A DNA stretch of 64,000 bases from Mesobacillus sp. Lineage in GTDB: Bacteria > Bacillota > Bacilli > Bacillales > Cytobacillaceae. Positions within the stretch are counted from its first letter, which is position 1. Each line of letters opens with the position of its first letter. The notes under the pieces were generated by a model that saw only the letters and a program-made list of their open reading frames with translations, did not search any database and was not told the DNA's origin. The stretch is taken from positions 15,254 to 79,253 of the forward strand of contig NZ_JBIQOE010000218.1 in the NCBI RefSeq assembly GCF_047739415.1, read 5' to 3'. Shown piece after piece: positions 4,338 to 62,454 of the stretch. The position numbers were made by a program, and so were the translations under genes.

Positions 4338-4516
4338 TAACTTATCGCCTCCAAAACAAAAAGCACCCAGGACAAACAGAGCTATAGATTAAGCTCTAGC
4401 ATCCAGGGTGCTTCCCTCTGATATAAAGTTTCTTTCAAAGTATACCATTATTCAATGTTACCCAACAATATGGAATCAACAATAAACCCTGAATAAATAT
4501 AAACTTTATACAAAGA

Positions 4517-4768
4517 AAATTAGGGTACGGATTAGGGATGGAGATTAACTGAGGATAAAAAATACCTCTGTAAATTAGGGTACAAAATGAGTGCCTAGTT
4601 ACTAGTGGTTTTATGGGCATATCCCCCTCCGAACCGGGGGTGCGAAATAGGGTTGAAGTTACCATTCAAAATCAGCCTTTAGTCCTTGATATTATAGGGT
4701 TTATATTGTTCGGTTAATCACACAACCTATATCGAACAGGTTATCTTGTTCGGTAAAAGTTGTTCGGT
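4517..4768. repeat. Iteron cluster: AAATTAGGGTAC x2 plus degenerate TAGGG(T/A) copies; TTGTTCGGT x3 direct plus one partial inverted copy
   Basis: The exact 12-mer aaattagggtac sits at 4517-4528 and 4572-4583 (55-bp spacing). Related attaggga is at 4531-4538, aatagggtt at about 4646 and atagggttt at about 4693. The exact 9-mer ttgttcggt sits at 4707-4715, 4747-4755 and 4760-4768. An inverted cgaacagg is at 4733-4740. Confidence 0.7.
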
Positions 4769-5285
4769 ATACACCTGTTTTTAGCTTCTGCGGACTTATT
4801 GTAAAGAGCTTATTGGAAGAACAAGGACATGTATAGAAAAGTGAATAACAAATTAAGGCAGCTTCGCATAAAAGTACAATTAGACACTTCCTATCGTTGT
4901 TCAGAAAACATTGTTTACAAGGAATTTTACGTTAATTTAAAATCATTCACTTTCAAGATTCAATCTCGTAATTGAATGGCCATTTAAACGATTACCATAC
5001 ATAGCGGTAGTGATTTTTAGCCAGCGCATAAAGAAGAGATCTTATTCCCCTTACCAGTTCCGAAGGGTTAGGAACTATTAACGAAGGAGGCAATCACTTG
5101 GAATGAAAGTCCATTAAAAGAAGAACAAATGCATTGAGCCTTGTATACTGAAAGTGAACATTGGAGAATTATATAATTTTTCATGCAAACGAAATCGCGG
5201 ACCTCAATTGTGTATCTTAAAGGTTTGTAAGTTTAAAACGGAACCCTTGGGTCTTTAGAATGTCAACAATATCAAGGGTTCTTTT

Positions 5286-5307
5286 GTGGTCCGCAATTGC
5301 GGACCAC
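5286..5307. promoter_or_regulatory. Perfect 22-bp palindrome (candidate protein-binding site or oriT inverted repeat)
   Basis: gtggtccgcaattgcggaccac is self-complementary and is followed by a G8 run (5311-5318). A related half-site gcggacctcaattg lies at 5197-5210. Just upstream is the hairpin gaacccttg (5241-5249) / caagggttc (5273-5281) followed by tttt. Confidence 0.5.
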
Positions 5308-5392
5308 ATGGGGGGGGCGTAACAATGAAAACCTATTAAAAATTACACGTTTTTTATCTTTCTGATTGCTATAATTTGCTTATTTAACTATA

Positions 5393-5449: not shown

Positions 5450-5803
5450 ATGAATGACAAAACGTCCATAAAGGTTGGTTATAAAGACTTAGACTTGCTT
5501 GAATACGATGAAGACACTCTAAGGTTTTTACGTAAAAAACTAGATGATTTTACTATCGATGTATTCAGAAGAATTATTACGGAAAACAAGTTACATAGAG
5601 GGCTTATTAAAGCCAGGCTTGAGGATTTCCACAGCATGAGGAAAAAGTATGATGCATCATTTCTGATTTTAGAGGCACAAGGATTTATAGAAAAAAAGGA
5701 AGATGGTACAGCTACCCCGTATTTTGTTACAGTTCGGGGTAGGCAACTTGGACAGTTATTAAAAATGGAAAAGTTAGAGCGAGAGGAGCTTGTAAATGAT
5801 TAA
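5450..5803 (+). CDS. tubR: TubR-like winged-helix centromere-binding protein (assigned mainly by position)
   Basis: 117 aa from the ATG at 5450, with RBS AAAGGTGG upstream. The ORF-track start at 5393 lies inside the repeats. A wing-like segment is FIEKKEDGTATPYFVTVRGRQL. The gene overlaps the tubZ start by 8 nt. Confidence 0.55.
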   Translation: MNDKTSIKVGYKDLDLLEYDEDTLRFLRKKLDDFTIDVFRRIITENKLHRGLIKARLEDFHSMRKKYDASFLILEAQGFIEKKEDGTATPYFVTVRGRQLGQLLKMEKLEREELVND

Positions 5804-7154
5804 ACCATTTGCTGAAAATGAAAAACTAGGGGCAATTAAAGCTTTGCTATCCCCACATTTGTTGTCTGATGAAGTTAAAAAGGAAATGAATCGTTTTCCT
5901 TCTCAAGCCATTATTGGCTTAGGACAAGGTGGAGGACGTATTGCAGCAGAATTATCAAGGTTTGGTTTTCCTACATTTTTATTAAATTCCTCAAAGTCTG
6001 ATATGGAAGAACATAAAAATTTGATCCCTGAGAATAGACGGATTGTGACTTCAAGTAAGGACTACCCAGAGCTTGAAGGAACCGACAAAGATGCACGATT
6101 AGGCTTTGAAATCGCAAAGGAAAATAAAGATCTGTACGCTAGTGTTGCTTTAGATGACGCAATTCAAGATGCTGAGTTTGTTTGGGTGTGTGTAAGCCTT
6201 GGTGGCGGGACTGGTAATGGAGCACTAAAAGTCGCATTAACGTATCTTTCGAAGGTAAGGCAGAACAGAGCACTTCCGGGCGGAAAAATCCCTCTTGGTG
6301 TCATCTGTTCACTCCCATCTTCCGATGAAAAGGGGTCAGCTTTTAGAAAAAATGCACTTGCCGGTATCAGTGTCATCCAACAATTAATGAACGAAAGTAA
6401 AATGGGTACTGCCATTGTTATAGACAACGAGAAAATGAATGACTACTATGCTCACAGCCCTCTCAAGACCTACGGAGGAACAGAAATTGATGCGAAGTCA
6501 TATAGTAACATGGTAATTGCAAGTGCGTTGGCAGAAGTTTCTTCTCTTCCTTTACTTGATGGTCGATCCGTTTTTGATAAGACAGAATTGCTGACTACAC
6601 TATCAACTCCAGGATGGCTCTCCATATCGAAGCATAAAGATTTAAAAAATGATGAAGATATTGAATCTGTCATCGGTAATCTTTTTAATAATAACGAGGT
6701 TCTTGCGAATTACAAGGTCCAGAACGCCATAGCTGGAGCTGTCGCAGTATTGTATCCTACAACTAAAAATATATCACCTAAAATTGCTGATGATGTTTAT
6801 CGATATACTTCCAAGCTATTAAATACAAAAGTGAACCTATCAATCTCTAAAAATAGCAAGATGGAGAGCCTAGCTTTGTATGGTTTGGCGGTTTATTTGA
6901 CCCCTTCTATACGTATTCAGCAGTTGAAAGAAGAACTAAAACAATGGGAACAAATCGAAAAAGAACAAGAAGAAGCCAAAAAGCAAGCGGCTTCCAGTAT
7001 AGGTCTTGATGAATTTGAAGATTTCTTCTCTTCTCCTAATATGGCAAAGGGAAGAAAAAAATTAACTCTCACTGATTTGGATGAGGACTTCGAAGAAACT
7101 ATGAAGGAGTCAAAAAAAATTATAGCTGCGGATCTAAATGACATAGATTTTTAA
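5796..7154 (+). CDS. tubZ: TubZ-like tubulin/FtsZ-superfamily GTPase (type III plasmid partition)
   Basis: 452 aa. Tubulin signature motif SLGGGTGNG and T1-loop-like GLGQGGGRIA. Charged, flexible C-terminal tail. Preceded by a small DNA-binding gene. Confidence 0.8.
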   Translation: MIKPFAENEKLGAIKALLSPHLLSDEVKKEMNRFPSQAIIGLGQGGGRIAAELSRFGFPTFLLNSSKSDMEEHKNLIPENRRIVTSSKDYPELEGTDKDARLGFEIAKENKDLYASVALDDAIQDAEFVWVCVSLGGGTGNGALKVALTYLSKVRQNRALPGGKIPLGVICSLPSSDEKGSAFRKNALAGISVIQQLMNESKMGTAIVIDNEKMNDYYAHSPLKTYGGTEIDAKSYSNMVIASALAEVSSLPLLDGRSVFDKTELLTTLSTPGWLSISKHKDLKNDEDIESVIGNLFNNNEVLANYKVQNAIAGAVAVLYPTTKNISPKIADDVYRYTSKLLNTKVNLSISKNSKMESLALYGLAVYLTPSIRIQQLKEELKQWEQIEKEQEEAKKQAASSIGLDEFEDFFSSPNMAKGRKKLTLTDLDEDFEETMKESKKIIAADLNDIDF

Positions 7155-8853: not shown

Positions 8854-9723
8854 ATGCCATATGGGTTTATACGACACATTGAAAATAAGGGATACAGTGT
8901 TGAAACGGTGCGAAGTTATGAGAAAGTTTTAAATCAGTTTTTCGCTTTTCTCTCAAAAAAGTATAAAAAGCACATAGAGCCATCCGAAATTAACCCCTCC
9001 GATATTAAAGGGTATATGAAAGACCAAAAGGAGCAAGGAAAGAGTAATTCCACTATAAATAAGGAATTAGCAATCTTAAAAACCTTTTTCAATTTTCTCT
9101 GGGAAAGCAGTACGGTCGCCGTAGATCCATCTGTAAAAATCAAAAGGTATAAAGACATAAAAAATCTTACTGTCGGAATATCCTATGAGGAAATTTTAAA
9201 ATTGCGCGACAATGTACTAAACAACGAAACATACTCAAATATTAGGAAAGCAATCTTTATCTTAGCAGCAAGAGGATTAAAAACTTCAGACTTTCGTTTT
9301 AAGAAAGATGACGTTATTGATAATTCTGAAGATGAAACTGTTGAAATAAAGTTAAAAAACCGTAGAATTTTATTACAAGGCCAAGAGGCGGATTGTTTTT
9401 TGGAATACTTTTATGAAACCCTACTTAACGGAAGTGATTATGTATTCCTTACTAAATCCCATGGTGAAGATGTTGGTGAACCTATTCAAGTTATGTCCAT
9501 ACTCACTCATTTAAGGAATATCGCTCAGGATTACTTGCCAGAGGATTCTTCACCACTGACACTTATTTTGATTAGAAGAGCCATTGCATATGATCGGTAT
9601 ACTAACAAGGTCCCTATCCAGAGAATAGCTCAGGAATTAGGAATCGAAGAAGCTTCTGCATCAAACTATATCAAGATACTACTTGAAGGGAATACTCAAA
9701 AAGTTCTTGAAGGAGAAATATAG
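8854..9723 (+). CDS. Tyrosine-recombinase-like protein with divergent catalytic residues
   Basis: 289 aa. RBS AGGAGGGG. SAM-like N-terminal domain (GYSVETVRSYEKVLNQFF...INKELAILKTFFNFL). Arg-I context AARGLKTSDF is present. The HxxR box reads LIRR and the LGH box reads LGI. A candidate Tyr sits in SNYIK. Confidence 0.55.
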   Translation: MPYGFIRHIENKGYSVETVRSYEKVLNQFFAFLSKKYKKHIEPSEINPSDIKGYMKDQKEQGKSNSTINKELAILKTFFNFLWESSTVAVDPSVKIKRYKDIKNLTVGISYEEILKLRDNVLNNETYSNIRKAIFILAARGLKTSDFRFKKDDVIDNSEDETVEIKLKNRRILLQGQEADCFLEYFYETLLNGSDYVFLTKSHGEDVGEPIQVMSILTHLRNIAQDYLPEDSSPLTLILIRRAIAYDRYTNKVPIQRIAQELGIEEASASNYIKILLEGNTQKVLEGEI

Positions 9724-12052: not shown

Positions 12053-12319
12053 CTAGTTACTCAATTCAAAATCATTCATCTCTACTTCGCCTTTTAACCA
12101 TTTAAGGCATAAATCCTCTGTAATGAACTCTTCAACCCAACACTCCCCGGATGAATTGTCAATACCAATGTAATGGCCGTTTTCCTCAACCATGAATAAC
12201 CCTATAGGTTTATAATTATTCATAATATCAGAAGCTTCTCTTTTATCAATCTTTTTTATTTTATTTCTGTTCTCTTTAATATCTGTGGTTTCTGGATTTC
12301 TCTCCGCAATGTTATTCAT
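12053..12319 (-). CDS. Small hypothetical protein, last gene of the E1/E2/JAB array
   Basis: 88 aa. RBS-like AGAGGGA upstream. Lies 38 nt downstream of the E1-like gene on the same strand. Confidence 0.45.
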   Translation of the reverse strand: MNNIAERNPETTDIKENRNKIKKIDKREASDIMNNYKPIGLFMVEENGHYIGIDNSSGECWVEEFITEDLCLKWLKGEVEMNDFELSN

Positions 12320-12357
12320 AATAAGTCCCTCTTTCTCACAAAATTATTATCTCTCTC

Positions 12358-13257
12358 CTAAGATGCAATCGTTAATTTCTCTGATGACTGCACATCAGTC
12401 GAACGCATATAACCTTTCTTCGCATGAAAAAAAGTGATGTGTGAGTTAATATTATAATCCTCAATAAGGATTGTAAGTATGTTTGCAATTGACAAGGCTG
12501 CTAATTTGTTCACTATTAATCTTTGAGGTTCAGAAGCAGTTAGTTCGGTACAAGAAAGCTCACTCGGCCGAATATCGTCTTGGTCCTGAAGAACATCAGG
12601 GAACATTTCAGCCATTGGTGCTTGTTTGAATAAATTCATCCTTACACCAGTGACTACCTGACCGCTCCATCCACTTTCACGGTAATCCCGTAACTCTTCT
12701 TCGGTCCATCTCTCTTTTGGCCTCGTTCTCCAATCATCAGGTACCTTTGTTGACTCATTTCCTGCATCGATATATACTACAGTCTTCATTTTCTTAAACA
12801 GTTCATGAATGACTCGGCGAGTATAGTTATTGTCCACACAGCCCACAATTATCGGCAAAAACAATTTATTACATTGTCGCTCTCCCTCATCATACATGGA
12901 CATGTATTCCATTGAAAAAAGAGCCCGCAAGTCTTTCTCTGATTCGATATAAGAATCGCTAAAAGAGCCAATGTCAATTCCATAAGCAGCCGAATAGCGG
13001 CTTGCCAAAACATCAGCCTTTTTCAAACCTACCTCCTGTGGCAGAAATAACTGATTTCCTAAATTTTTTTCTTCAATAACGTCAGGGTCAGCAATTACAT
13101 ACGCCGCTTTTGTCTTCGTTGTCCCTAATAGTTGAGCGATATGTTGAACAACATAACCACCCGTGCCTCCAGCTCCGACCTGCACAATAAAGGGGAAAAC
13201 ACCTTGATAGTCGTACCAATTATCTTTAGCTGCTTTTAGAATGTTAATTCCGTTCAT
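12358..13257 (-). CDS. ThiF/MoeB/E1-like adenylyltransferase (ubiquitin-activating-enzyme-like)
   Basis: 299 aa. Rossmann motif VQVGAGGTGGYVV, ThiF-type box DPDVIEEKNLGNQLF and the downstream VGCVDNNYTRRVI. Candidate catalytic Cys in LSCTELT. The start overlaps the JAB gene stop (ATGA). Confidence 0.75.
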   Translation of the reverse strand: MNGINILKAAKDNWYDYQGVFPFIVQVGAGGTGGYVVQHIAQLLGTTKTKAAYVIADPDVIEEKNLGNQLFLPQEVGLKKADVLASRYSAAYGIDIGSFSDSYIESEKDLRALFSMEYMSMYDEGERQCNKLFLPIIVGCVDNNYTRRVIHELFKKMKTVVYIDAGNESTKVPDDWRTRPKERWTEEELRDYRESGWSGQVVTGVRMNLFKQAPMAEMFPDVLQDQDDIRPSELSCTELTASEPQRLIVNKLAALSIANILTILIEDYNINSHITFFHAKKGYMRSTDVQSSEKLTIAS

Positions 13258-14195
13258 GCTACCACAACCTCAACTTTTGACATATCAAAGGCTGGAAGCG
13301 ATTTAAACGGATCCTCAAACACCAGATGAAAAGGCACTGGTTTATGGCCTTCATCCTCAGAAATAAAGCAACGAATTGTTATATCCGGCAATGGCTTTTG
13401 CAAACCTCCTACGATAGCATAAATCATCCCAGGAAGCCGTTCTGATTCGTTATCTTGAGTAGAGGGGAGGGGAGCCATACAATGGTGAGAATGAATCTCT
13501 AAAACCTTTATGGCATCTTCAACTCTCTCTGCAATATCGTATGAAGATTCGCTAACTTCACACCAATATTTATGAACCCGCTGTGCCGGAACATCTAAAA
13601 AGAAATGCCCTGTTGCACTTTTGTAAATGTCAGCATGGATTTCTAGAGATTGTTCAGCGTACAAACGGGCCAAGCTTATAAATTGGCTTAATACATTGAA
13701 CGGAACGGGAAAAGAAACGCCTTCTTGCGAAGACGTTTCTCTACAATTCCCTTTCTTTTTTGCTTTCATGACTGGAATGACAATATTCTTGTCCTTCAAA
13801 TAAACCATCTCCGTCATGTCCTTTACAAGTTCAGGAAAATCCTTTTCCATTCTTTTGCGAAGTAATTCTCCATCCAATGGACGTCTTTCTGTTTCTCCGT
13901 CTTTCTTTTTGACTAGCAAGCCTTCAGCTAATTCCTCTGAAGTAAAATAGGAAATGATTTCGATGGATTCACCAAAGTAACGAATCACTGTATCCTGGTT
14001 TACTTCAAAAAGATCTTTTTCCGTCCCCTTATTTTCGGCGCTAGTAGCAGCCTTCTTATTTTCCACCTGTTTACGCAATTCTTCGGCTTTTCGAGCCCTT
14101 TCTTCTTCCTCCTGCTTTTTTTGCTCAGCGTATTCATCAACAATCCCAAACATTGAAAAAATATCTTCCTGCCCTGCGATTACATTCTTAGTCAT
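13254..14195 (-). CDS. JAB/MPN+ (JAMM) metalloprotease with N-terminal coiled-coil and a Ubl-like segment
   Basis: 313 aa. Exact JAMM motif H235-S-H237-x7-S245-x2-D248 (EIHSHHCMAPLPSTQD). Candidate upstream Glu at WCEVSES. Residues about 62-149 (VIRYFGESIEI...DFPELVKDMTEMVYLKDKNIVIPVMKAKKKG) look like a beta-grasp ending in Gly. Confidence 0.75.
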   Translation of the reverse strand: MTKNVIAGQEDIFSMFGIVDEYAEQKKQEEEERARKAEELRKQVENKKAATSAENKGTEKDLFEVNQDTVIRYFGESIEIISYFTSEELAEGLLVKKKDGETERRPLDGELLRKRMEKDFPELVKDMTEMVYLKDKNIVIPVMKAKKKGNCRETSSQEGVSFPVPFNVLSQFISLARLYAEQSLEIHADIYKSATGHFFLDVPAQRVHKYWCEVSESSYDIAERVEDAIKVLEIHSHHCMAPLPSTQDNESERLPGMIYAIVGGLQKPLPDITIRCFISEDEGHKPVPFHLVFEDPFKSLPAFDMSKVEVVVA

Positions 14196-14212
14196 TAAAA
14201 TCCACTCCTAAT

Positions 14213-14932
14213 CTAATTATTTTTTTTGAATAGATCTCCAAACTTATTGTTACTTGGCATAAGCCAGTCATCATCAAAAGGTTGTTCTTTAATTCGCTCG
14301 ATTAAAGCTCGGAATCTGGATATCCCCAAGGTTGTACGCACACCGTGATCTTCGTTAAACGGAGAGGCAACAAACCACCTAAAGGCACGCTCTAGTTCAA
14401 CGATATCCTTAATTTCTAACCTTTGATTCAACCCCCAGCATACGATCCCATTGCTCTTACCGACATTAGGATATGGGAATACAAACAAAGGGGTATCATC
14501 AGTAACTGGACACCCGTTGTCCTGAACTGCATAGATTCTCATTTCAGATATCTTTAATCCCCTATTTCCAAATGGTACAAGAAGATATTGTAAAACCATT
14601 CGAGGAAACCCAATGGTAAAAAAATTTTCTTCTTCTCCATATCGGATTTCCCACATCTTCTTTTCTAATAGCATTGTAACGCGCTGCTTACTACCAGATT
14701 CATTTGAAGAGTAGCGAATGCATCTTGCAGGAAGGGTAGGAGTGCTCTTTTCTTCGTTGCGTTTTGCATCTGCATCGTAAGCATTTTCTGGAGCCTGCTG
14801 TAACGCTTGGATAATATCTTCAACCCGATAATAAAATGGACCTTTCCGCACACCATTGTCACCAATTTGAAAAGCTTCTATTGGGAATTCAGACGATTTT
14901 GGAACATCTGACAGTTCAAATTGCCACCGCAT
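14213..14932 (-). CDS. Prokaryotic E2/UBC-like protein
   Basis: Start taken at the ATG at 14932, which follows AAGGAG at 9-nt spacing; the ORF track begins 20 codons earlier. The E2-like active-site context is FPYPNVGKSNGIVCWG (HPN-like YPN, then Gly-x-x-Cys). Confidence 0.6.
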   Translation of the reverse strand: MRWQFELSDVPKSSEFPIEAFQIGDNGVRKGPFYYRVEDIIQALQQAPENAYDADAKRNEEKSTPTLPARCIRYSSNESGSKQRVTMLLEKKMWEIRYGEEENFFTIGFPRMVLQYLLVPFGNRGLKISEMRIYAVQDNGCPVTDDTPLFVFPYPNVGKSNGIVCWGLNQRLEIKDIVELERAFRWFVASPFNEDHGVRTTLGISRFRALIERIKEQPFDDDWLMPSNNKFGDLFKKNN

Positions 14933-15437
14933 TTGATTCTTGCTCCTTTCTAGTCGGTAATATGTCCAGAAGGACATACAGAACATCAACAAGGTCTATA
15001 GGTCCGTCATCTTCATACCATGTCAAAATTACTCCATTTTCAATTGAAGTAATCTCACCATAGCCACAATAAAAATCCGCGCCTCCACCGATGGTTCCTG
15101 AGCGAATTTTTGTATGGTCAATACGATCATCCAGGATAACAATAATTCCCGTGCCTTCCAGGTCATCATGATGGTGAGAAAGGCCGGCACGTTCGCACCA
15201 ATATGTTTTATCAGGAATCTCTTCTTCACCGCTATGAGGAAACCAATAATCTACGATAGTAAAGACGGAATTCACTGTATGCATGAAAATGTCCCAGTCA
15301 TATTCCTGTCCAAAATCATAATTAACCACATAGTGGGGGAACTTTTTTAAATCCACACCATAGTCAAATGCTAGTTTCATTAGCATAAGATTTTGAACTG
15401 TCCCCTTAAGACTATAGTAATCATCATGTGACTCCAT
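14916..15437 (-). CDS. Acidic hypothetical protein (173 aa) in the Ubl-system array
   Basis: RBS GGAGGGA. Lies 10 nt after the upstream gene and overlaps the E2-like start by 17 nt. No family recognised. Confidence 0.5.
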   Translation of the reverse strand: MESHDDYYSLKGTVQNLMLMKLAFDYGVDLKKFPHYVVNYDFGQEYDWDIFMHTVNSVFTIVDYWFPHSGEEEIPDKTYWCERAGLSHHHDDLEGTGIIVILDDRIDHTKIRSGTIGGGADFYCGYGEITSIENGVILTWYEDDGPIDLVDVLYVLLDILPTRKEQESNAVAI

Positions 15438-15447
15438 AATTTCCCTC

Positions 15448-15786
15448 CTACAGAAATAAGAAAGGGGAAGGTGGCCTCTGTTTCGGCAACTTCCCCAGAC
15501 TGTATATTTTATTAGATAGAGCCATTATCCGCGTATATGGATGATTAGGATCAATGCAAATACGTCCCTCTGTGTCTTCATCAGAAAGAACAGAATCTAA
15601 TCCTTCATACACTTCGATTAGATCCTCGAATTCAAACTTTGAGAAGTTTATATCCTCCGTACATAACTGGTTCTGAATCACCATAAGCACATAGTTTTGT
15701 CCGATTTGCTCTTCAACACTTCCTTGTCCCTTATCGTTAATAAGTTCGGAGAAGGTGGAGAAACTAAATCCATTTCTCATTGTCAT
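15448..15786 (-). CDS. Hypothetical protein (112 aa) in the Ubl-system array
   Basis: RBS GGAGG. Lies 35 nt downstream of dnaN. No family recognised. Confidence 0.5.
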   Translation of the reverse strand: MTMRNGFSFSTFSELINDKGQGSVEEQIGQNYVLMVIQNQLCTEDINFSKFEFEDLIEVYEGLDSVLSDEDTEGRICIDPNHPYTRIMALSNKIYSLGKLPKQRPPSPFLFL

Positions 15787-15821
15787 ACCTCCTTAAAAAC
15801 AGGAAGGAATCCTCCCTGTCT

Positions 15822-16949
15822 TTATGTTGTTCTTACCGGCAACACAAGCTGAAGCTCTTCGTAGGTTGATGAACATGGAGTAACCAGAAAAGGCCTCATG
15901 TTACCCTGGTATTTAAAGTTGATATATTCATCATCTATCGCTTTTAGAGCGTCAATCATGTATTTGGAAGAGAAAGAAATGGTAAAATCGTCTTCACCGC
16001 TCAATTCCTCGTAATCAACCACTTCTACACCTTTACCAATTTGCGATTGGTGAGTGGAGATTGTGGCTGCTCCATTAACGTGAAGTTTTACCACTCCGCC
16101 TTTTCCATTGTCTGCTCCATTGGCCAATCCGCTTATACGATCAAGACTCTCCAAAAATTCTTTGCGACTTATTTTCATTTCCGCTCTGAACTCTGTAGGG
16201 ATAAGACGTGAAGTATCAGGATAATTGCCTTCTAACAAGCGGCTATAAAAGAATAACGCTCCATTTTTAAACACCACTTGATTATCAGATTCACAATATA
16301 GGCTAACATCCTCTTGTAAATCGAAGGTTTTGGCCAGTTTATCTAATGACTTTGCTGGAATAACCAATCTTAAGTCTTTCTTTCCTTCCACCTTTGACTT
16401 AACTTGGCCCAAACGGTGAGAATCCGTACAGACCAGCTGCATACAATCTTCCGTGATAGATAGATTGACGCCTGTTAGGATAGGCCGAATTTCCGAATCT
16501 GATGCAGCGAAAGATGTTTTCTTTACAAAAGAATTGAAATCTGTACCTTTCAATGTGAAGGTAGGTTTTTCAATATCAAAAGTAGGTAGTTTCGGATATT
16601 CTTCCGGATCAAAAGTGTTAAGATTGAATTCTGATTTTTTACCATATTTAATGGTCAAATTAAAGTCGATTAGTTTTAATTCCAAATTCTTCTTCAGCTT
16701 TTTCGAGATATCCGATACTTGCTTCGGTAGAACAGTCTTGCCTGGAACAAACACATCGACATTTTCACCATCAACCGGAATATGATAACGGAAAGATTCC
16801 GTGCTGTCAGAACCAACCAAGATGATCTCTTGTTCATTAACTTCCATAAAGACGCCTTGAAGAATGGGAATACTGTGCTTAGCATTTACCACTTTCTCCA
16901 CCTTTTTTAGTGCTTCAGCAAAAAGTTGACTATCGATTTTAAAATGCAT
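15822..16949 (-). CDS. dnaN: DNA polymerase III beta sliding clamp, extra-chromosomal copy
   Basis: 375 aa. DnaN-like N-terminus MHFKIDSQLFAEALKKVEKVV...IPILQGVFMEV. Typical length and three-domain layout, with C-terminus MRPFLVTP...LVLPVR. Confidence 0.85.
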   Translation of the reverse strand: MHFKIDSQLFAEALKKVEKVVNAKHSIPILQGVFMEVNEQEIILVGSDSTESFRYHIPVDGENVDVFVPGKTVLPKQVSDISKKLKKNLELKLIDFNLTIKYGKKSEFNLNTFDPEEYPKLPTFDIEKPTFTLKGTDFNSFVKKTSFAASDSEIRPILTGVNLSITEDCMQLVCTDSHRLGQVKSKVEGKKDLRLVIPAKSLDKLAKTFDLQEDVSLYCESDNQVVFKNGALFFYSRLLEGNYPDTSRLIPTEFRAEMKISRKEFLESLDRISGLANGADNGKGGVVKLHVNGAATISTHQSQIGKGVEVVDYEELSGEDDFTISFSSKYMIDALKAIDDEYINFKYQGNMRPFLVTPCSSTYEELQLVLPVRTT

Positions 16950-17026: not shown

Positions 17027-18025
17027 TTAAGCTATTTGTTTGATATGCCCTTGTTTTAAGTCCTCTTTAACAAATTGAACGATCTCTTTTACCTGTTCCA
17101 AAGTGACATGGGTAAAGCAGGAAAAAAGATTTTCAACTCTGATTTTGGGATTTAAAATCTGCACATAATTTAAGACATCATCCATTGAAATTTTATAATG
17201 ATTAGCAACCACGGTTAAATCATTGACTGGCCGCAACACATTGTAATACTGCCTAAACTCAGCTTCAGATGCTTTTTCAAAGACCTCAGTAATAGTTGTT
17301 TGTTGGATACTCGGATTGATTCGTTTGAACAAAGGCATGATCCAATTAGAATGTTCAGTAAGCCCGGTATTTTTTAGATATTCCGTAATCACTTTAACAG
17401 CTGTACCGCGATTAAATTCGGATTTTTCATCTGACATTTGCGGTTTTTGCTGTTGTTGACTAGATGTTTGATTATTAGGGTTTCTCCTTTGTTCGTTTCC
17501 TTCGGAAAAAGAATGCTTTTTTTCATTTTCAGGTAACGCCCATATCGGTAACTTGGGAGGAAGCCAATAACCATAAACATTATTCTTTTTATCGTTTATT
17601 CGTATTGCTCCATCCCGTTTGTCGTCAAAAACTTCCACAAACATGGATTCAAGCTTATACAGATATCGTCCAATACCCCACTGTACAGCTGCTCTTTTCA
17701 TGGCGCCTGAAAGTCCGCCTTTAAGCGATTCAATCTCTGTCTGTTCAGCACCGTCCGATTTTTCAACCCATTCACCATCTATGAAGCAAGAGATAGTGCA
17801 TAAAATTCCATCTTTGAAATCCTTGTAGCTGTTCTTCCAGCCGGCAGGACCGAAGACTTCATCAAGGCGGTTTTGAATTGCCCTGTTTGTTACATAAGCC
17901 AATACCATTGCCCACTTCTTTCCATTTTTAATACCTGAATGACTGACACGCCATTCGATATCCTTAGATGGAAATGGAGCCTGCAGCTTACTGATAACTT
18001 CTTCCATACTACAATCTTGTTTCAT
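17027..18025 (-). CDS. Rad52/Rad22-family single-strand annealing protein with Q-rich linker and extra C-terminal domain
   Basis: 332 aa. DIEWRV...GLSGAMKRAAVQWGIGRYLY matches the Rad52-like SSAP signature. A TSSQQQQKPQ linker is followed by about 120 aa of unknown domain. Confidence 0.7.
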   Translation of the reverse strand: MKQDCSMEEVISKLQAPFPSKDIEWRVSHSGIKNGKKWAMVLAYVTNRAIQNRLDEVFGPAGWKNSYKDFKDGILCTISCFIDGEWVEKSDGAEQTEIESLKGGLSGAMKRAAVQWGIGRYLYKLESMFVEVFDDKRDGAIRINDKKNNVYGYWLPPKLPIWALPENEKKHSFSEGNEQRRNPNNQTSSQQQQKPQMSDEKSEFNRGTAVKVITEYLKNTGLTEHSNWIMPLFKRINPSIQQTTITEVFEKASEAEFRQYYNVLRPVNDLTVVANHYKISMDDVLNYVQILNPKIRVENLFSCFTHVTLEQVKEIVQFVKEDLKQGHIKQIA

Positions 18026-18441: not shown

Positions 18442-18678
18442 GTGGTTGAATTTAAGAAGATAAAGCCATTAAACGATGCCGAAAGGCTGATTATTCTACG
18501 AAAAAGATTGAATCTCAGTCAATTTCAATTCGCCCAGGAACTAGGGATTAGTTCAAGTTACTTGGGGCAAGCAGAACGCGGAAACTGCTCATTTAGCCCT
18601 TTCTTAAAAGAGCGAATAAATGAATACCTAAAACGGGAGAAAGAAATTAATGAAAAAGATTTATTTGGCAATAAGTGA
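18442..18678 (+). CDS. XRE-family HTH transcriptional regulator
   Basis: 78 aa with LRKRLNLSQFQFAQELGISSSYLGQAERG. RBS AAGGAGG. Divergent from the Rad52-like gene. Confidence 0.7.
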   Translation: MVEFKKIKPLNDAERLIILRKRLNLSQFQFAQELGISSSYLGQAERGNCSFSPFLKERINEYLKREKEINEKDLFGNK

Positions 18679-22115: not shown

Positions 22116-24863
22116 TTAAGAAAGTTTTAGTGGTCTTAAAGAGCCTATAGAGATTACCTTCTCCGGATTAAAGTGATATTCTCCTAGTAAATTAATATGT
22201 TCCCAACCTAGAGGCGACATATGGTGCAATAATTCTTCATTAAAACTACGAGACTGTTTTTGATATTCGACTGCTTTTGTTAGATGTAAGGTATTCCAGA
22301 TACCGCATTAATGATTATATTTAAGGCACTGGCCCTTTGCAATTGATGCTGTATGGTTCGTTCCCTAAGCTCACCTTGTTTTCCAAAGAAAATAGCCCTT
22401 GCCAATCCATTCATGGCTTCTCCTTTATTCAATCCTCGTTGTATTTTTCTTCTTAATGATTCATCCGATATATAATTCAAAATAAAGATCGTTTTTTCTA
22501 TTCGGCCCATCTCACGTAAGGTGGTAGCTAAGCTGTTTTGTCTTGAATAGGAACCTAGTTTCCCCATAATAAGGGATGTTGAAACTGTTCCTTCCTTTAT
22601 AGAATGAGCTAATCGCAAAACATCTTCATAATTTTCTTTAATGACCTTTGTATTTATTTGTCCACGTAAAATGGCTTCTAATTTTGGATATTCACTTGCT
22701 TTATCTATTGTAAATAATTTTGAATCTGATAAATCTCTTATTCTTGGAGCAAATTTAAATCCTAATAAATGAGTAAGCCCAAATATTTGGTCTGTGTAAC
22801 CAGCTGTGTCTGTATAATGCTCTTCTATATTTAGATCCGTCTCATGGTGACAATTGTAATTTATGGAAATTTACTAATATGGCTTGTGCCTTATTCATTG
22901 CATCTTCATACAGACGCCATTGAGATACATTGGCTAGTTGCTTATATGTAAGTCCGGGTGTGGCTTCGGCCATCTTGCTTAAGCCAATATTCATTCCCAT
23001 TCCTAAAAGGGCAGCCATGATAATGATTGTTTCCTCCTTATCTGGTTTTCGATTATTGGAAGCATGAGTGAATTGCTCATGAAATCCTGTTATATGAGCA
23101 ACATCCATAAGTAAATCAGTTAATTTTATTCTTGGTAGCATTTGATAAAGGCTTGCGCTAAATTTTTTTGCTTCTTCTGGAACATCTTTTTCTAAGCGTG
23201 CAAGTGACAGTTTTCCTTTTTCAAGAGAAACCCCATCTAACTTGTTGGAATTGGCAGCTAACCATTTTAACTTTTCATTAAGGCTACTGGTTCTCTTTGT
23301 TATATAATCTTTGAATGATAAACTAACTGATAATCTCGTATTCCCCTTCGATTGATTCCATATATCTTCCGAAAACAAATATTCCTCAAAATCCCTATAT
23401 TGTCTGCTGCCAACAATAGAAACATCTCCTGCCCGAACATGCTCCCGAAGTTCTGTTAAAACAGCCATTTCATAGTAATGACGATTAATTGTTGTACCAT
23501 CATCCTCGTATAAATGCTTTTTCCATCGTTTTGAAATAAAATCCACAGGTGAGTCATCAGGCACTTTTCGCTTTCCGGATTCGTTCATTCCTCGAATAAT
23601 CTCAACAGCCTGTAAAAGTGGCTCATTTGCCTTTGTAGAATGGAATTCCAATACTCTTAATAGCGTTGGCGTATATTTTCTTAGTGAATAAAACCGTTTT
23701 TGCAGTAAGTCCAAATAATCATAGTCGGCAGGACGGGCAAGCTTTTGAGCATCTTCTACTGAAGAGACAAAGGTATCCCATTCAATAATCGATTCTAAAA
23801 CCTTAAAAACGTCTAATTTTTCCTCTCTTGCTTTAATTAATGCTTGTCCGATGTTCGTAAAGTGTATAACTTTCTCATTTAGTTTTTTACCGTTTTGTTT
23901 CTGGATTTCCTCTTGAGCCTTACGACCTTTTGATAACAAACTAAGTATTTGCCTATCATGAATTTCAAACGCATTATCTGTTAGCTCCTGAGTAAGTTGT
24001 AATAAATAGACGGTTAATATCGAATAACGTTTATTTTCTTGAAAGTCACGGAATGCATACGGCTCGTATCTTGAACCTAAGCGAGATAGCTGTAATAGGC
24101 GGTTGCGATGCAAATGGCTAATTTTTACCGTCTCTAATTCTATTCCCCGAATGTATTCGAGTCGTTCTATTACTTTCAGAAATGTTTCGGGTGAAGGATG
24201 ACCCGGTGGTTCCTTTAACCAACCCAATAACGTTTTATTGGATTCGGATGGATGCTGCGAAGTAATGATCTCTTCAAGTTTTACTTTTTGCTCATTTGTT
24301 AGGGACTGACTAACCGTATTAAATAGCTTCTTTTCGGCCATTGCTCTTGCCTCCCACACCATTCTCTCAAGTGTAGTGATAGCAGGTAGTATGATTTTGT
24401 TTTTTCTTAGGAGGTCGATACATTCATGTAGTAGATGAATGGCATCACCATTTTCCAAAGCTAATTGATGAAGATGCTTAAAGGTCATTCGATATTCTTT
24501 TAGGGTAAAAGTTACAAAATCGTATTCACTTCGAATTTCTTTCAAATGATCCCAAAGTGTATTTTCTCTTTGAGGATAAAGACTAAGTGAAGATGGACTA
24601 GCACCGATTTGTTTTGATATATAATGTATGAGCGAATCTGGGATGCTTTTGATATGAGTGTACGGCCAACCAGGGTACCGAAGAACGGCTAATTGAACGG
24701 CGAACCCTAACCGGTTTTCTTCTCTTCTTCGTTTATTTATAATTTCTAAATCTCGTTTGGAAAAAGTGTAGTAGGTTCCTAGCACCCAGTCATCTTCTGG
24801 AATTTGCATAAGAGCCTCTCTCTGTTCGGGTGTAAGCAATTCCCTACCTCTCGCAATTTTCAT
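22116..24863 (-). pseudogene. tnpA: Tn3-family transposase TnpA, disrupted by at least two frameshifts
   Basis: A 673-aa N-terminal ORF (22842-24863), a 112-aa fragment (22280-22618), and a further C-terminal segment in another frame (WNTLHLTKAVEYQK...LRPLKLS, stop at 22116). Together these span about 915 codons. Confidence 0.8.
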
Positions 24864-25010
24864 TCAGCATCATCCCATTTCTATAATTTCTCAATTTATT
24901 ACTTCAATTATATATCAATAGAGTGTACTCTATTGATACAAGTATAGTAGACTGATAAAATCATAGTTAAGAGTGTCTCATAAGACTTGTCTCAATAACG
25001 AGGTGAAATT
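24864..25010. promoter_or_regulatory. res region between tnpA and tnpR
   Basis: Palindrome tatcaatagag-tgta-ctctattgata at 24913-24938. TGTCTCA repeats lie at about 24975-24995. The position is typical for res sites and divergent promoters. Confidence 0.6.
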
Positions 25011-25586
25011 TTGCAGAAAATCGGTTATGTACGCGTCAGTTCGACTAGCCAAAATCCTTCAAGACAATTTCGGCAATTGAACGAAATTGGAATGGATATT
25101 ATTTATGAAGAAAAAACTTCAGGAGCCACAAAAGATCGTGAACAACTTCAAAAAATGTTAGAGGATTTACAGGAAGGTGACATTATTTATGTTACAGATT
25201 TAACTCGGATCACTCGAAGTACGCAAGATTTATTTGAATTGATTGATTTAATACGAAATAAAAAGGCAAGCTTAAAATCACTTAAGGATACATGGCTAGA
25301 TTTATCAGAAGATAATCCATATAGCCAATTCTTAATTACGGTAATGGCTGGTGTTAACCAATTAGAGCGAGACCTTATTCGTATGCGTCAGCGTGAAGGA
25401 ATTGAGCTCGCAAAGAAAGAAGGGAAGTTTAAAGGACGGTTAAAGAAATATCATAAAAATCACGCAGGAATGAATTATGCAGTAAAGCTATATAAAGAAG
25501 GAAATATGACTGTAAATCAAATTTGTGAAATTACAAATGTATCTAGAGCTTCTTTATATAGAAAGCTATCGGAAGGAAAAAAATAA
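25011..25586 (+). CDS. tnpR: Serine recombinase (resolvase)
   Basis: 191 aa. The N-terminus MQKIGYVRVSSTSQNPSRQ carries the catalytic Ser context. C-terminal HTH NQICEITNVSRASLYRKL. Confidence 0.85.
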   Translation: MQKIGYVRVSSTSQNPSRQFRQLNEIGMDIIYEEKTSGATKDREQLQKMLEDLQEGDIIYVTDLTRITRSTQDLFELIDLIRNKKASLKSLKDTWLDLSEDNPYSQFLITVMAGVNQLERDLIRMRQREGIELAKKEGKFKGRLKKYHKNHAGMNYAVKLYKEGNMTVNQICEITNVSRASLYRKLSEGKK

Positions 25587-27596: not shown

Positions 27597-28670
27597 TTGC
27601 CTAAGATTACTCCTATTCAGTCATACATGATTATTATGCTTTCGGTTGGATTAATGAACCACGTGATTATTATCCCTTTACTACTCGAAGCATCAAAGCG
27701 AGATGCCTGGCTCGTAGTGCTTCTTGTTTTTGTCGCTTCACCTGTTTGGATTGGTTGCTTGAACTACATCATTCAAAACATGAACAATCAACACATGAAA
27801 AAGTGGCTAGATCAGCACTTTGGAAAGTTTTTATCTGCAATCTTAGTGATTATTTATAGTTTGTTATTATGGCTCATGGGCTTTATTTCCTTAAAAGATA
27901 CTCTAACATGGACAATCGCATCTTACTTGCCGCAAACACCGATACTAGTTCTTGCGGGAACCACACTTGTTGCATGCTTCTTTGCTGCTTTTCAAGGACT
28001 CCGTACAATTGCAATTGTGAGCGGAATATTGTTGCCATTTGTTGTTATTCTAGGTCATCTTGTGGCGATTGCCAATTTTCAGTTTAAAGATTATACCCTG
28101 CTTTTTCCTTTGTTAGAAAACGGGACAGCTCCATTATGGAAAGGTGTTCCTTACGTTGCCGGGGGATTGCTGGAGTTGTCTTTCTTGATGTTGCTGATTC
28201 AGCACAAATTAACAAAAAAACCAGGATTTAAAAGCTTGATGTTGATGTGCTTCATCCTTACAGGACTTACGTTAGGACCATTGATGGGATCGATTGCGAT
28301 ATTTGGCCCTGATGAAGCGGCTAACCAGAGATACCCAGCTTACGCTCAATGGAGAATCGTTAGACTGGGAGAATATGTGGAGCATGTCGATTTTTTTTCG
28401 ATTTACCAGTGGCTATCCGGTACATTCATTCGTGTGTCCCTTTCTATCTATCTCTTGGGAGAATTGTGGAATTTACAAAAACGCAGTTGGTTACCCGTGT
28501 TATTTGGCGCATTGGCCATGCTTGTTGCCATTTTGCTGCCGATGAGCGACATGGCTTTTCTAGACTTGTTAGGAAGGTTTTATTTTCCTTCATTTTGTAT
28601 CTTTACAGTAGGGACCTTGATCCTGTATGTTGGTCGAATGATCATCTCAAGAATTCGCCAAAAGGAGTGA
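27597..28670 (+). CDS. Spore germination protein, GerAB/GerKB-type permease subunit
   Basis: 357 aa, about 10 TM segments. Sits directly upstream of the GerA-family subunit. RBS GAGGTGAG with a TTG start. Confidence 0.75.
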   Translation: MPKITPIQSYMIIMLSVGLMNHVIIIPLLLEASKRDAWLVVLLVFVASPVWIGCLNYIIQNMNNQHMKKWLDQHFGKFLSAILVIIYSLLLWLMGFISLKDTLTWTIASYLPQTPILVLAGTTLVACFFAAFQGLRTIAIVSGILLPFVVILGHLVAIANFQFKDYTLLFPLLENGTAPLWKGVPYVAGGLLELSFLMLLIQHKLTKKPGFKSLMLMCFILTGLTLGPLMGSIAIFGPDEAANQRYPAYAQWRIVRLGEYVEHVDFFSIYQWLSGTFIRVSLSIYLLGELWNLQKRSWLPVLFGALAMLVAILLPMSDMAFLDLLGRFYFPSFCIFTVGTLILYVGRMIISRIRQKE

Positions 28671-28679
28671 CTAGCTAGG

Positions 28680-30221: not shown

Positions 30222-30223
30222 AA

Positions 30224-53834: not shown

Positions 53835-53876
53835 TTTTTCAACTCCATTCAATACAAGATGGTTTTTATCAGATGC

Positions 53877-54158
53877 TTAATAACTTTTTCTTTTACCCCC
53901 ATTGAGATAAATTATAGCAACTACAACACCGGTCATACTCAAAAAATAGCTGGCAATATTGAAGTTTGAGAAATTGAAATATGGAGAAAGAATTGTAGAA
54001 AGTTCCTCACTATAAACAGTTAATAGCATCGCCAGAAAAATTAAAGAAAATGATCTTATAACTCTTTTATTTACTCCTTTTGTAATTGCCAAGAACCCTG
54101 TGAATACCATAGATAACCCCATGGTTACAGAGGTTAAAATTTTTAAAGTTTCTATCAT
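53877..54158 (-). CDS. Small three-TM membrane protein
   Basis: 93 aa, hydrophobic. RBS AAGGAGG. First gene of the minus-strand array that ends with the recombinase. Confidence 0.45.
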   Translation of the reverse strand: MIETLKILTSVTMGLSMVFTGFLAITKGVNKRVIRSFSLIFLAMLLTVYSEELSTILSPYFNFSNFNIASYFLSMTGVVVAIIYLNGGKRKSY

Positions 54159-55731: not shown

Positions 55732-55734
55732 TAA

Positions 55735-57960: not shown

Positions 57961-58025
57961 TTTATTGTGGAGTGGTACGGACGTTTATTTTAAAATGGAC
58001 TTATATAACGCATGAGGTGATGGAG

Positions 58026-62316: not shown

Positions 62317-62420
62317 TTACGGCCATAGGATCTTACCACCTCTGCCATCTTTTTTACCACTCAATGACAGAGAATTTACCGGCAAGTGCCAAGTTGTTTA
62401 CCAACTTAAATTTAATTAGA

Positions 62421-62454
62421 ATACCCCTGCCTATTCGACCAATGGCAGGGGTAT
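62421..62454. terminator. Bidirectional hairpin terminator
   Basis: Stem atacccctgcc (62421-62431) / ggcaggggtat (62444-62454). It lies 20 nt beyond the stop of the minus-strand 99-aa gene. Confidence 0.65.

Follow-up and report, generated by a model that had tools for sequence, protein, structure and literature searches.

A Predicted Ubiquitin-like Conjugation Cassette Linked to Sliding Clamp and Single-Strand Annealing Protein Genes on a Plasmid-Type Element of Mesobacillus sp.

Gene Composition of the Cassette

The stretch of DNA analyzed here (hereafter the window) comprises 64,000 nucleotides of contig NZ_JBIQOE010000218.1 from a Mesobacillus sp. genome (positions 15,254 to 79,253 of assembly GCF_047739415.1). 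It contains a co-oriented gene array, called the cassette below, in which the genes of an E2-like carrier enzyme, a JAB-domain protein and an E1-like adenylating enzyme are located downstream of genes encoding a single-strand annealing protein (SSAP) and a DnaN sliding clamp. PRTRC (ParB-Related, ThiF-Related Cassette, TIGR03734-03742) systems are uncharacterized gene clusters of proteobacterial plasmids and integrative and conjugative elements (ICEs). Judging from profile, alignment and gene-order comparisons, the cassette appears to be a distant DnaN/SSAP-linked variant of these PRTRC-type systems. The features of the array are given below in coordinates of the window; the loci mentioned are those of the survey described in the next section, GA is the Pfam gathering threshold, AF2 is AlphaFold 2, and pLDDT is the predicted local distance difference test score.

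17027..18025, minus strand: Rad52/Rad22-family SSAP, 332 aa; Pfam Rad52_Rad22 72.4 bits; opens the co-oriented array
15822..16949, minus strand: DnaN beta sliding clamp, plasmid-encoded, 375 aa; TIGR00663 256 bits and all three Pfam clamp domains
15448..15786, minus strand: p112, acidic protein, 112 aa; family-less; position kept in 35 loci
14916..15437, minus strand: p173, acidic protein, 173 aa; family-less; syntenic in 34 loci
14213..14932, minus strand: E2-like carrier enzyme, Prok-E2 family D, 239 aa; PF14460 36.3 bits (GA 25)
13254..14195, minus strand: predicted modifier-JAB fusion protein, 313 aa; two folded domains around a disordered linker (AF2)
14148..14171, minus strand: residues 9-16 of the 313-aa protein, QEDIFSMF, putative clamp-binding-type peptide; motif match
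14010..14147, minus strand: residues 17-62 of the 313-aa protein, E/R/K-rich spacer; helix in AF2, variable length in the alignment
13749..14009, minus strand: residues 63-149 of the 313-aa protein, predicted modifier core (bb-a-bb-a-bb), ends with A-K-K-K-G149; alignment, AF2 and hhalign
13707..13748, minus strand: residues 150-163 of the 313-aa protein, linker past the predicted cleavage site; low pLDDT, variable columns
13254..13706, minus strand: residues 164-313 of the 313-aa protein, JAB/MPN+ metalloprotease domain; intact JAMM motif, Foldseek
12358..13257, minus strand: E1-like adenylating enzyme, ThiF family, 299 aa; PF00899 33.5 bits (GA 28.1)
12053..12319, minus strand: 88-aa open reading frame (ORF), co-oriented, lineage-specific; family-less, position unoccupied in other loci
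18442..18678, plus strand: Xre-type helix-turn-helix (HTH) protein, 78 aa, divergently transcribed; Pfam HTH_3 and HTH_31

The original prediction, made from the letters of the window, described seven minus-strand ORFs led by dnaN, and the gaps between them (35, 10, -17, 17, -4 and 38 nt) were reproduced exactly from the ORF coordinates. The gap of -17 nt requires the 239-aa E2 with an ATG start at 14932. The longer E2 starting at TTG (14213-14992, 259 aa) was rejected as an over-extension: the homologues are 235-244 aa in length, and the public gene call, which comes from a near-identical contig (L043), is 239 aa. The limits of the array had to be redrawn at both ends. The co-oriented run begins one gene upstream of dnaN, at the Rad52-like gene 17027-18025, and the 88-aa ORF, counted earlier as the seventh gene, is present in contig L043 but has no homologue at that position in the other loci. 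The start of the E1 gene overlaps the stop codon of the JAB gene by 4 nt in the window, and the gap is -4 or -8 nt in most loci.

The quoted motifs all appear in the translations: the E2 contains YPNVGKSNGIVC, the JAB protein HSHHCMAPLPSTQD (HxHx7SxxD), and the E1 both GAGGTGG and DPDVIEEKNLGNQ. The E2 context noted as HPN-like is in fact YPN. No family was assigned to p112, p173 or the 88-aa protein in Pfam, NCBIfam and PADLOC. The 78-aa Xre-type HTH protein is a candidate regulator of the operon, and an HTH gene occupies the same divergent position on Priestia, Virgibacillus and Cytobacillus plasmids. A scan of the operon for promoters and terminators gave counts indistinguishable from those of shuffled sequence and was not used.

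Distribution and Conservation of Gene Order

A scan of one genome per species revealed 37 loci in Bacillaceae, Planococcaceae, Brevibacillus and Paenibacillus, in which the gene order was set by two rounds of profile assignment. The order SSAP-DnaN-p112-p173-E2-JAB-E1 was found in about 30 of the 37 loci, the Rad52-like gene being syntenic upstream of dnaN in 30 of them. Since the order recurs in about 30 of 37 independent loci at a protein identity of 20-70%, the arrangement is far beyond chance. Annotated plasmids of Planococcus, Priestia, Virgibacillus, Cytobacillus and B. cereus carry the series Rad52, dnaN, a ~110-aa protein, a ~175-aa protein, E2, JAB and ThiF. The flanking backbone is also kept on these plasmids: the HTH gene and genes of DUF4258, DUF3854 and a ~480-aa protein are located on one side, and Phage_int_SAM is found on the opposite side. 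The linkage of the enzyme genes with dnaN and an SSAP gene, noticed in a single sequence, is thus strongly conserved across plasmids and loci in the neighborhood survey.

The proteins are evolving at different rates. Median identities to the window range from 47% (E1) through 41% (JAB protein), 40% (DnaN), 38% (Rad52-like protein) and 31% (E2) down to 17-19% (p112 and p173). In a search of PLSDB, E2 was detected on 146 plasmids, large replicons of Bacillales, 121 of them from Bacillus (including B. cereus pCER270), E1 on 252 plasmids and a DnaN on 212. Near-identical DNA was found neither in PLSDB nor in phage genomes, and phage records and IMG/VR viral contigs contained zero relatives of the E2. 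A viral origin of the cassette was rejected, IMG/VR and the phage genomes being devoid of relatives.

The seeming exceptions among the 37 loci leave the common order uncontradicted, and some of them are contig ends. In the Brevibacillus and Paenibacillus loci, the Rad52-like gene was undetectable upstream of dnaN. One locus (L012), regarded at first sight as a dnaN-less counter-example, is an IS4-disrupted remnant with a truncated E2 and was rejected. In L048, an actinobacterial-like metagenomic contig with a GC content of 69%, a RecT-like SSAP replaces the Rad52-like one, and there is no dnaN between; the p112-like protein of this locus has ...REFI at its end, and the minimal modifier extends from GLDLF to GHRKG. 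Here the SSAP gene seems to have been replaced in place by a non-orthologous one. Group II intron insertions were found between the E2 and JAB genes in three loci (L014, L027 and L028), and such repeated insertions are consistent with the cassette being a transcribed operon.

The B. cereus-group version of the cassette (L002 and L036-L041, e.g., pCER270) contains additional genes. Two paralogous proteins of ~270 aa, x269 and x273 (99.9% when compared with each other by hhalign), are encoded between p173 and E2. Other genes of this version are a 66-aa ORF, a 133-aa ORF between JAB and E1, and a 123-aa ORF; a nucleotidyltransferase/HEPN pair is located downstream, and the modifier ends with GAKG. 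In addition, a group II intron reverse transcriptase/maturase gene is located upstream of dnaN in L002.

E2, E1 and JAB Enzymes

The identities proposed earlier for the three enzymes agree with the profile searches. The matches to Prok-E2_D and ThiF exceed the GA, and that to Prok-JAB is 18.7 bits in the window, below the GA of 25; in the family as a whole, Prok-JAB matches 48 of 48 members (best E 5e-8) and PRTRC_A matches 44 of 48. The E2 also matches PRTRC_B (28 bits, under the cutoff), and all 60 of its homologues are precomputed as PF14460. A search of the E2 against PDB sequences gave nothing at E <= 1. Cys165, Pro153 and Gly167 of the E2 are invariant in 37 of 37 sequences in the context F-P-x3-V-x7-C-x-G, and Cys165 is the predicted catalytic cysteine.

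The E1 contains a single ThiF domain (residues 27-264 of 299), in which the G28-x-G30-x-x-G33 loop and residues D57, D59, R87, D142 and C236 are invariant (37/37). Its match to solved E1 structures is limited to residues 25-89 (E ~1e-3); it matches the ThiF and MoeB models weakly, and its N-terminus shows weak PADLOC matches to Cap2-type E1-E2 models (best E 1.2e-5). All 48 aligned sequences share the JAMM residues E185, H235, H237, S245 and D248 of the JAB domain. For the 313-aa protein, AF2 gave a model with a mean pLDDT of 82 and values >90 over the JAB domain. A Foldseek search of the PDB with this domain placed 8tyx_B (BilC, E 3e-6) at the top, followed by AMSH, Sst2 and Rpn11.

Because the catalytic residues are invariant and the JAB model resembles BilC, the triad seems to have all that is required for adenylation, thioester transfer and (iso)peptide cleavage, and its description as a genuine E2-JAB-E1 enzyme set stands. 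Neither thiamine, molybdopterin or microcin genes nor ThiS or MoaD were found among the neighbors. No CD-NTase was revealed by the Pfam and PADLOC searches, and E2 and E1 are encoded by separate genes.

Predicted Modifier Half of the 313-aa Protein

The alignment of the 313-aa protein divides its N-terminal half into four parts: a peptide, an E/R/K segment, a module of ~85 aa and a variable linker. The E/R/K spacer varies in length and sequence across the alignment, and in AF2 a single long helix spans residues 13-50; matches of this region to DUF6465, TolA and Jag were discarded as low-complexity artefacts. The predicted modifier core contains the invariant residues T69, I71, E88, G92, R113, E117, A145, K148 and G149, and the K-K-G ending is near-universal across 42 loci. 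Residues 147-159 have a pLDDT of <50 in the model of the whole protein, as a disordered linker would, and the core modelled alone in AF2 has a pLDDT of 85.

In 42 of 47 homologues of canonical PRTRC protein C (Pfam Prok_Ub, 68 aa), the sequence ends with GTKG-COOH. When the module was compared with the PRTRC-C family by hhalign, the probability (Prob) was 38% (E 3e-4). When the comparison was restricted to the core columns that the minimal homologue P0151 also has, an insertion of ~25 aa thus being removed, it reached 67% (E 5e-5), the controls giving 0.1-1.2%. Collinearity extends in this alignment from the first hairpin up to and including the [FY]PEL helix, and in global mode the two ends match up. 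The PRTRC-C protein of Cupriavidus pHG1 has five residues beyond its Gly and can therefore be considered a precursor. A Prok_Ub/beta-grasp fold of the modifier core is probable.

The most informative evidence on processing comes from natural variants. A hidden Markov model (HMM) search of 1.84 billion representatives revealed 81 relatives at E <= 1e-30, including split forms. The split ORFs P0282 and P0286 stop exactly at the Gly (...ARKRG and ...ARKKG), and P0283, P0277, P0289 and P0308 extend 2-4 residues past it. The stop codons are real in the DNA (GGA TAA and GGA TGA). In L056, JAB is encoded on its own, by a gene of a 213-aa protein with the JAMM motif intact, which starts 5 nt downstream of the modifier gene. 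In the metagenomic contig Ga0618274_000286 (L055), a gene of a Fic-domain (AMPylase-type) protein is inserted between the modifier and JAB genes (5498-6256). Fused Brevibacillus proteins read ARKKG-SG-MILE..., and the split JAB proteins start with MILE.... The fusion junction thus corresponds to the predicted cleavage site. BilC has been shown experimentally to cleave after a conserved Gly of BilA, also in a BilA-GFP fusion (PMC10557695). Given this precedent and the split ORFs ending at the Gly, we infer cleavage after Gly149.

The predicted cleavage site of the modifier-JAB polyprotein is thereby validated by comparison, and we conclude that the N-terminal 149 residues are, as predicted from these sequences, the conjugated modifier, matured by the JAB domain. 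As for the original reading of the protein as a Ubl-JAB fusion (Ubl, ubiquitin-like protein), a separable modifier ending at an invariant Gly speaks for it, whereas the beta-grasp fold was not confirmed by Foldseek and is indicated by a moderate Prok_Ub/PRTRC-C profile match only.

Several other sequences were considered as split variants. The short JAB homologues P0146, P0148 and P0150 turned out to be truncations or frameshifts. The Clostridioides sp. plasmid pESS17301a (L051) carries a Prok-E2_D and ThiF pair, and a JAMM protein was not recognizable there. Its 122-aa ORF between E2 and ThiF starts with MNFTELF and ends with FKNKG and a stop codon, and an upstream 95-aa ORF ends with ...EEEEIY. 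The pattern of the 122-aa ORF fits a split modifier; since hhalign homology is absent, it was not accepted and can serve as a lead only, one overtaken by the split variants verified in DNA. An IS605 (TnpA/TnpB) element breaks the upstream part of the cassette in L055.

Sliding Clamp, Clamp-Binding-Type Peptide and Small Acidic Proteins

The plasmid-encoded DnaN is a full-length clamp, the best PDB match of which is B. subtilis DnaN (4tr6, E 2.5e-67). Residues T175-L180, Y243-P244, R248 and L368-R373 of the peptide-binding cleft rank with the best-conserved columns of an alignment of 37 plasmid DnaNs; this conservation would be permissive for peptide binding only. Clamp-binding peptides follow the consensus QL[S/D]LF or QxxLF, with positions 1, 4 and 5 being the critical ones (PMC12309361). 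The pattern Q-x-[D/N]-[I/L/M]-F occurs within the first 45 residues in 67 of 87 representatives of the modifier-JAB family and in 5 of 780 other ORFs of the same loci. QTDIF is the form present in 34 representatives and QEDIF that in 13; near variants occur elsewhere, and the remaining 20 of 87 contain xxx[I/L/F]F at the same place. In the split variants, the motif stays on the modifier (e.g., QASLF in P0283). QTDIFSMF also fits the PIP-box-like pattern Qxx[ILM]xx[FYM]F. In the AF2 model, QEDIF (residues 9-13) lies within the low-pLDDT N-terminus. The N-terminal peptide of the modifier can be regarded as a putative clamp-binding motif matching the consensus.

Two small acidic proteins are encoded between the clamp and the E2. 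Both p112 (pI 4.5, median identity to the window 19%) and p173 (pI 4.4, 17%) are fast-evolving, and recognizable conservation in p173 is confined to the N-terminal ~35 aa. Strong constraint in p112 is confined to its C-terminal tip, usually [DE][DE]D[DE]-F-[IL]-COOH, with F111 in 34 of 36 sequences and I or L as the last residue in 31 of 36; p112 of the window ends with PSPFLFL. This tip is reminiscent of the C-terminal tails of single-stranded DNA-binding protein (SSB). PRTRC-E proteins of Proteobacteria have a clamp-motif-like end (...DDLQLF or ...DLASLL) after a low-complexity acidic linker, which resembles the p112 tip. p112 and p173 could be adaptors, substrates or mimics.

A comparison of p173 with the E2, the JAB protein and PRTRC proteins E and F by hhalign indicated no relation. 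The assignments of p173 as an inactive E2 (a ubiquitin E2 variant, UEV) or as a paralogue of x269/x273 (Prob <= 4.6%) and of p112 or p173 as PRTRC E or F (Prob <= 0.3%) were rejected. A resemblance of one PRTRC-E N-terminus to the N-terminal motif of the modifier was also dismissed, as other PRTRC-E proteins start otherwise.

Relation to Known Systems

PRTRC-type clusters correspond to class 6d of Iyer, Burroughs and Aravind (2006). The canonical PRTRC order is ParB-E-C-F-B-A-ThiF, and the original comparison of the E2-JAB-E1 order with PRTRC B-A-ThiF was verified on a canonical PRTRC plasmid. PRTRC_ThiF, PRTRC_A and PRTRC_B are the best NCBIfam matches of the cassette enzymes; however, the scores are far below the cutoffs, 82 vs 144.75 for ThiF (TIGR03736), 19.6 vs 101.8 for A (TIGR03735) and 28 vs 131.45 for B (TIGR03737), and strict PRTRC membership has to be rejected. 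The modifier core is collinear with protein C and has the same [KR]-K-G end; in contrast to protein C, the cassette modifier has an N-terminal extension of ~60 aa, the insertion of ~25 aa and the fusion to JAB. A profile search found no ParB-family neighbor of the cassette and neither protein E nor F; in their place are a Rad52-type SSAP, DnaN and a pair of unrelated acidic proteins. Both systems are found on mobile elements only, beside a DNA-handling backbone gene, the hosts being Bacillota for the cassette and Proteobacteria for PRTRC. One canonical PRTRC cluster adjoins an antirestriction gene and an orphan N6-methylase.

A triad of Prok-E2_D, MPN and ThiF is also present in Nostoc PCC 7120 (pCC7120beta) and Nostoc sp. 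C052 (pC052_E). Its PRTRC_ThiF score of 135 bits is just below the cutoff, and the triad is between the cassette and canonical PRTRC in similarity. It is located in a co-directional cluster with genes of a DEAD helicase, prim-pol, dnaN, dnaX, a 3'-5' exonuclease and holA. The Nostoc JAB protein is 198 aa in length and lacks a fused modifier, none having been identified there. The Nostoc dnaN is 4-7 kb downstream, together with dnaX, holA, the exonuclease and prim-pol, whereas that of the cassette is immediately upstream; SSAP, p112 and p173 are absent from the Nostoc cluster. The Bacillales, Nostoc and PRTRC contexts agree, so across three phyla the E2-JAB-E1 triad accompanies genes for replication, partition or recombination of mobile elements rather than defence genes.

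The similarity to Bil operons suggested at first is partial. As in BilABCD, the E2, the JAB deubiquitinase (DUB) and the E1 are encoded by separate genes in the same order, the JAB domain has BilC as its best structural match, and a conserved Gly is followed by a non-conserved tail for removal by the DUB, which is shown for BilA/BilC and predicted here. The E1 architecture does not agree: BilD consists of an inactive adenylation domain (IAD), an active adenylation domain (AAD) and a CYS domain (PMC10557695), whereas the cassette E1, set against BilD as published, is one ThiF domain of 299 aa. BilA is a separate protein and a clear beta-grasp Ubl; the cassette modifier is usually fused to JAB and gave no beta-grasp match. 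Bil is defensive, whereas the cassette is part of a conserved plasmid backbone with DnaN and the SSAP.

Type II cyclic-oligonucleotide-based anti-phage signaling systems (CBASS) share with the cassette the E1/E2 chemistry, a JAB peptidase that trims or reverses the mark (Cap2/Cap3), and the weak PADLOC E1-E2 matches; Cap2 is an E2-E1 fusion, unlike the separate genes of the cassette, which has no CD-NTase or effector. A beta-grasp fold is not required of the moiety conjugated in CBASS, where the C-terminus of the CD-NTase is the substrate (PMC11601603). The cassette also lacks a DUF6527 component, and it differs from the ThiF/MoeB sulfur-carrier pathways in having an E2 and a JAB protein and no ThiS, MoaD or biosynthesis genes. 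The literature searches revealed no functional work on PRTRC, which appears only as an annotation label, or on an association of E1, E2 and JAB with DnaN. The earlier remark that no characterized system has the same composition is in agreement with this.

Proposed Mechanism and Alternative Explanations

We propose that the cassette encodes a complete ubiquitin-like conjugation system of the PRTRC/Prok-E2_D lineage, tethered to the clamp and acting in plasmid replication, recombination or establishment, and we hold the chances of this proposal being right or wrong to be about equal. The JAB domain would cut the 313-aa polyprotein after Gly149 (the last residue of KAKKKG), freeing a modifier of ~149 aa, in which a stiff E/R/K helix would connect the QxDIF peptide with a small Prok_Ub-like domain that has Gly as its last residue. 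The ThiF-type E1 would adenylate Gly149 and load the modifier on Cys236; the E2 would take it on Cys165 and pass it to lysines of the targets, and the JAB domain would also reverse the mark. The invariant residues and family membership point to these reactions. The N-terminal peptide of the modifier would dock in the hydrophobic cleft of the co-encoded DnaN, a step suggested by the motif match and the least certain one. Tagging may be aimed at the clamp and its clients, or else tagged proteins may gain a clamp-binding handle. The role suggested by the conserved synteny would be control of plasmid DNA replication or of SSAP-assisted, recombination-dependent establishment, with p112 and p173 as possible adaptors, substrates or SSB-tail-like competitors. 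The original suggestion of a role in replication, establishment or counter-defence stays an interpretation, strengthened by the clamp-type motif and by the cyanobacterial replisome context.

Several observations weigh against this proposal. Foldseek gave no significant match for the modifier core (best E 0.48 in the PDB and 0.22 in BFVD), the Ubl HMMs (Prok_Ub, ThiS, ubiquitin and PRTRC_C) match 0 of 48 family members, and the Prok_Ub match of 67% appears only when the insertion is removed. The KKKG tail is not docked in the JAB active site of the full-length AF2 model, and an E3 is not recognizable in the cassette. Clamp binding is suggested by a motif of five residues only, and about a quarter of the family members lack its Gln. 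Because L048 retains the motif without an adjacent plasmid dnaN, the motif could also bind the host clamp or another partner.

In a more specific version of the proposal, the cassette would be the bacterial equivalent of the system that ubiquitylates and SUMOylates PCNA in eukaryotes (Rad6-Rad18, Ubc9). The modifier would be attached to the beta clamp or to clamp-bound proteins (polymerase, SSAP, p112 and p173), acting as a replication/recombination switch in establishment or copy-number control, and JAB would both mature and erase it. In both cases, a clamp is coupled to E1, E2 and DUB enzymes and a Rad52-family protein; still, this is a functional analogy only, the homology being at the superfamily level. 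The cassette clamp is a bacterial beta dimer rather than PCNA, and would be no more than a candidate substrate. We consider this version rather unlikely.

The role of the cassette is probably not phage defence, to judge from its genes and their neighbors. The synteny with replication genes is also compatible with counter-defence during plasmid entry, which is another point against our proposal. The system would then be expressed early in the recipient, where the modifier would tag restriction or other defence factors, RecA/SSB partners or the host replisome and so inactivate or redirect them, and p112 and p173 would mimic DNA or SSB tails. The small size, high acidity (pI ~4.5) and low identity (17-19%) of p112 and p173 are as expected in an arms race, and the acidic-hydrophobic p112 tip is SSB-tail-like. 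Counter-defence would also suit a cassette confined to mobile elements and situated ~8 kb from the relaxase gene and the repeat-rich candidate origin of transfer (oriT), as well as the antirestriction gene and N6-methylase beside the canonical PRTRC cluster. However, it leaves unexplained the strict clamp/SSAP linkage, the clamp-type motif of the modifier and the place of the Nostoc version among replisome genes. The enzymes are the slowest-evolving parts (E1 at 47%), and placement in a leading region is conjectural. On balance, counter-defence seems an improbable function, though one deserving some weight. A Bil-like anti-phage cargo, the modifier of which would be conjugated to phage structural proteins and block virion assembly, appears less probable still. 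The gene order matching BilB-BilC-BilD, the structural match of JAB to BilC, the weak Cap2-type matches of the E1 N-terminus and the defensive nature of related bacterial Ubl systems (PMC11601603; PMC10557695) are in its favor. At the same time, PADLOC-DB (2023 release, with Bil-model content unconfirmed) gave weak matches for the E1 and none for the E2, and the E1 lacks the IAD, AAD and CYS architecture. The cassette is fixed in the backbone beside replication and partition genes, ~37 kb from a variable defence island, and was never found in phages or prophage-like contigs; moreover, DnaN and SSAP partners have no role in Bil.

Two further explanations carry little weight. Iyer et al. (2006) predicted mobile clusters of E1, E2, JAB and Ubl genes and speculated on their roles in addiction or defence. 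In an addiction or stability system, the opposing activities of E1/E2 and JAB would act on an essential host protein, and the conservation of the cassette on large, low-copy plasmids fits this idea. Yet nothing in the cassette resembles a toxin, an addiction module would need far fewer genes than these seven, which co-evolve and among which are a clamp and a recombinase, and copies disrupted by insertion sequence (IS) elements or interrupted by group II introns persist, making addiction very improbable. E1-like enzymes act in sulfur-carrier and microcin pathways, and non-conjugating adenylation of that kind (ThiF/MoeB-like sulfur transfer or MccB-like modification of a peptide C-terminus, with E2 and JAB as accessories) would fit the weak ThiF/MoeB matches of the E1. 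We regard it as the least probable explanation, hardly to be expected next to an E2 whose active-site Cys is invariant and a JAMM peptidase of the DUB type; the E1 keeps the invariant Cys236, and thiamine, molybdopterin and microcin genes are absent nearby.

Significance

To our knowledge, anti-phage immunity (CBASS and Bil) is so far the only function demonstrated for bacterial systems of E1, E2 and DUB, with Bub under study. The prediction of PRTRC-type systems on plasmids and ICEs dates back about 20 years, and no function is known for them. New features, as predicted from the sequences, are the apparently obligate linkage to a clamp and an SSAP, the self-processed modifier-JAB polyprotein and the clamp-type peptide on the modifier. 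The cassette thus offers a concrete and testable hypothesis for the orphan PRTRC-type class. If the hypothesis is true, Ubl control of the replication clamp would not be solely a eukaryotic invention, and there would be a further layer of control of replication or establishment in pCER270-type plasmids of B. cereus and megaplasmids of B. thuringiensis, which are of medical and industrial relevance. The system occurs in tractable hosts, B. cereus/thuringiensis and Nostoc PCC 7120.

Replicon Surrounding the Cassette

Among the products encoded in the window are a type IV coupling protein, a Replic_Relax relaxase, a TubZ-like GTPase, a cell-wall hydrolase and proteins resembling VirB4 and VirB6; a gerA operon is present as well, and the number of tRNA genes is zero. 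From this gene content, the replicon appears to be a conjugative plasmid-type element of spore-forming Bacillota, and the plasmid context assumed at the outset holds. The intergenic region of 1 kb at 4338-5392, between the relaxase gene and the TubR/TubZ-like pair, contains short direct repeats. A perfect palindrome of 24 bp, TGTGGTCCGCAATTGCGGACCACA, is located at 5285-5308, with a related copy at 5190-5207. The region is a candidate oriT and/or tubC centromere. The gene at 8854-9723 encodes a protein of 289 aa whose sole match is to the N-terminal SAM-like domain of phage integrases, the catalytic domain giving none; it is syntenic on related plasmids and has the same annotation there.

The cassette is indeed outside the distant defence island, as noted earlier, the MmeI-type restriction-modification enzyme and SIR2-HerA being ~37-40 kb off. 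The island (51126-57492) includes an MmeI-type IIG enzyme at 51126-53852 (PADLOC 1221 bits) and a SIR2-HerA pair at 54643-57492 (558 and 730 bits). Genes of a tyrosine integrase (49225-50352) and a DDE transposase (57972-59384) border the island; further on, the flank at 60478-63531 contains an IstB-like ATPase gene and an upstream ORF with a weak rve domain.

A resolvase and a Tn3-family transposase ORF are encoded at 22842-25586, the DDE match of the latter covering the first 86 of 389 profile positions only. The gerA-type spore-germination operon (27597-31387) adjoins them, and this proximity suggests that the germination genes are transposon-associated cargo.

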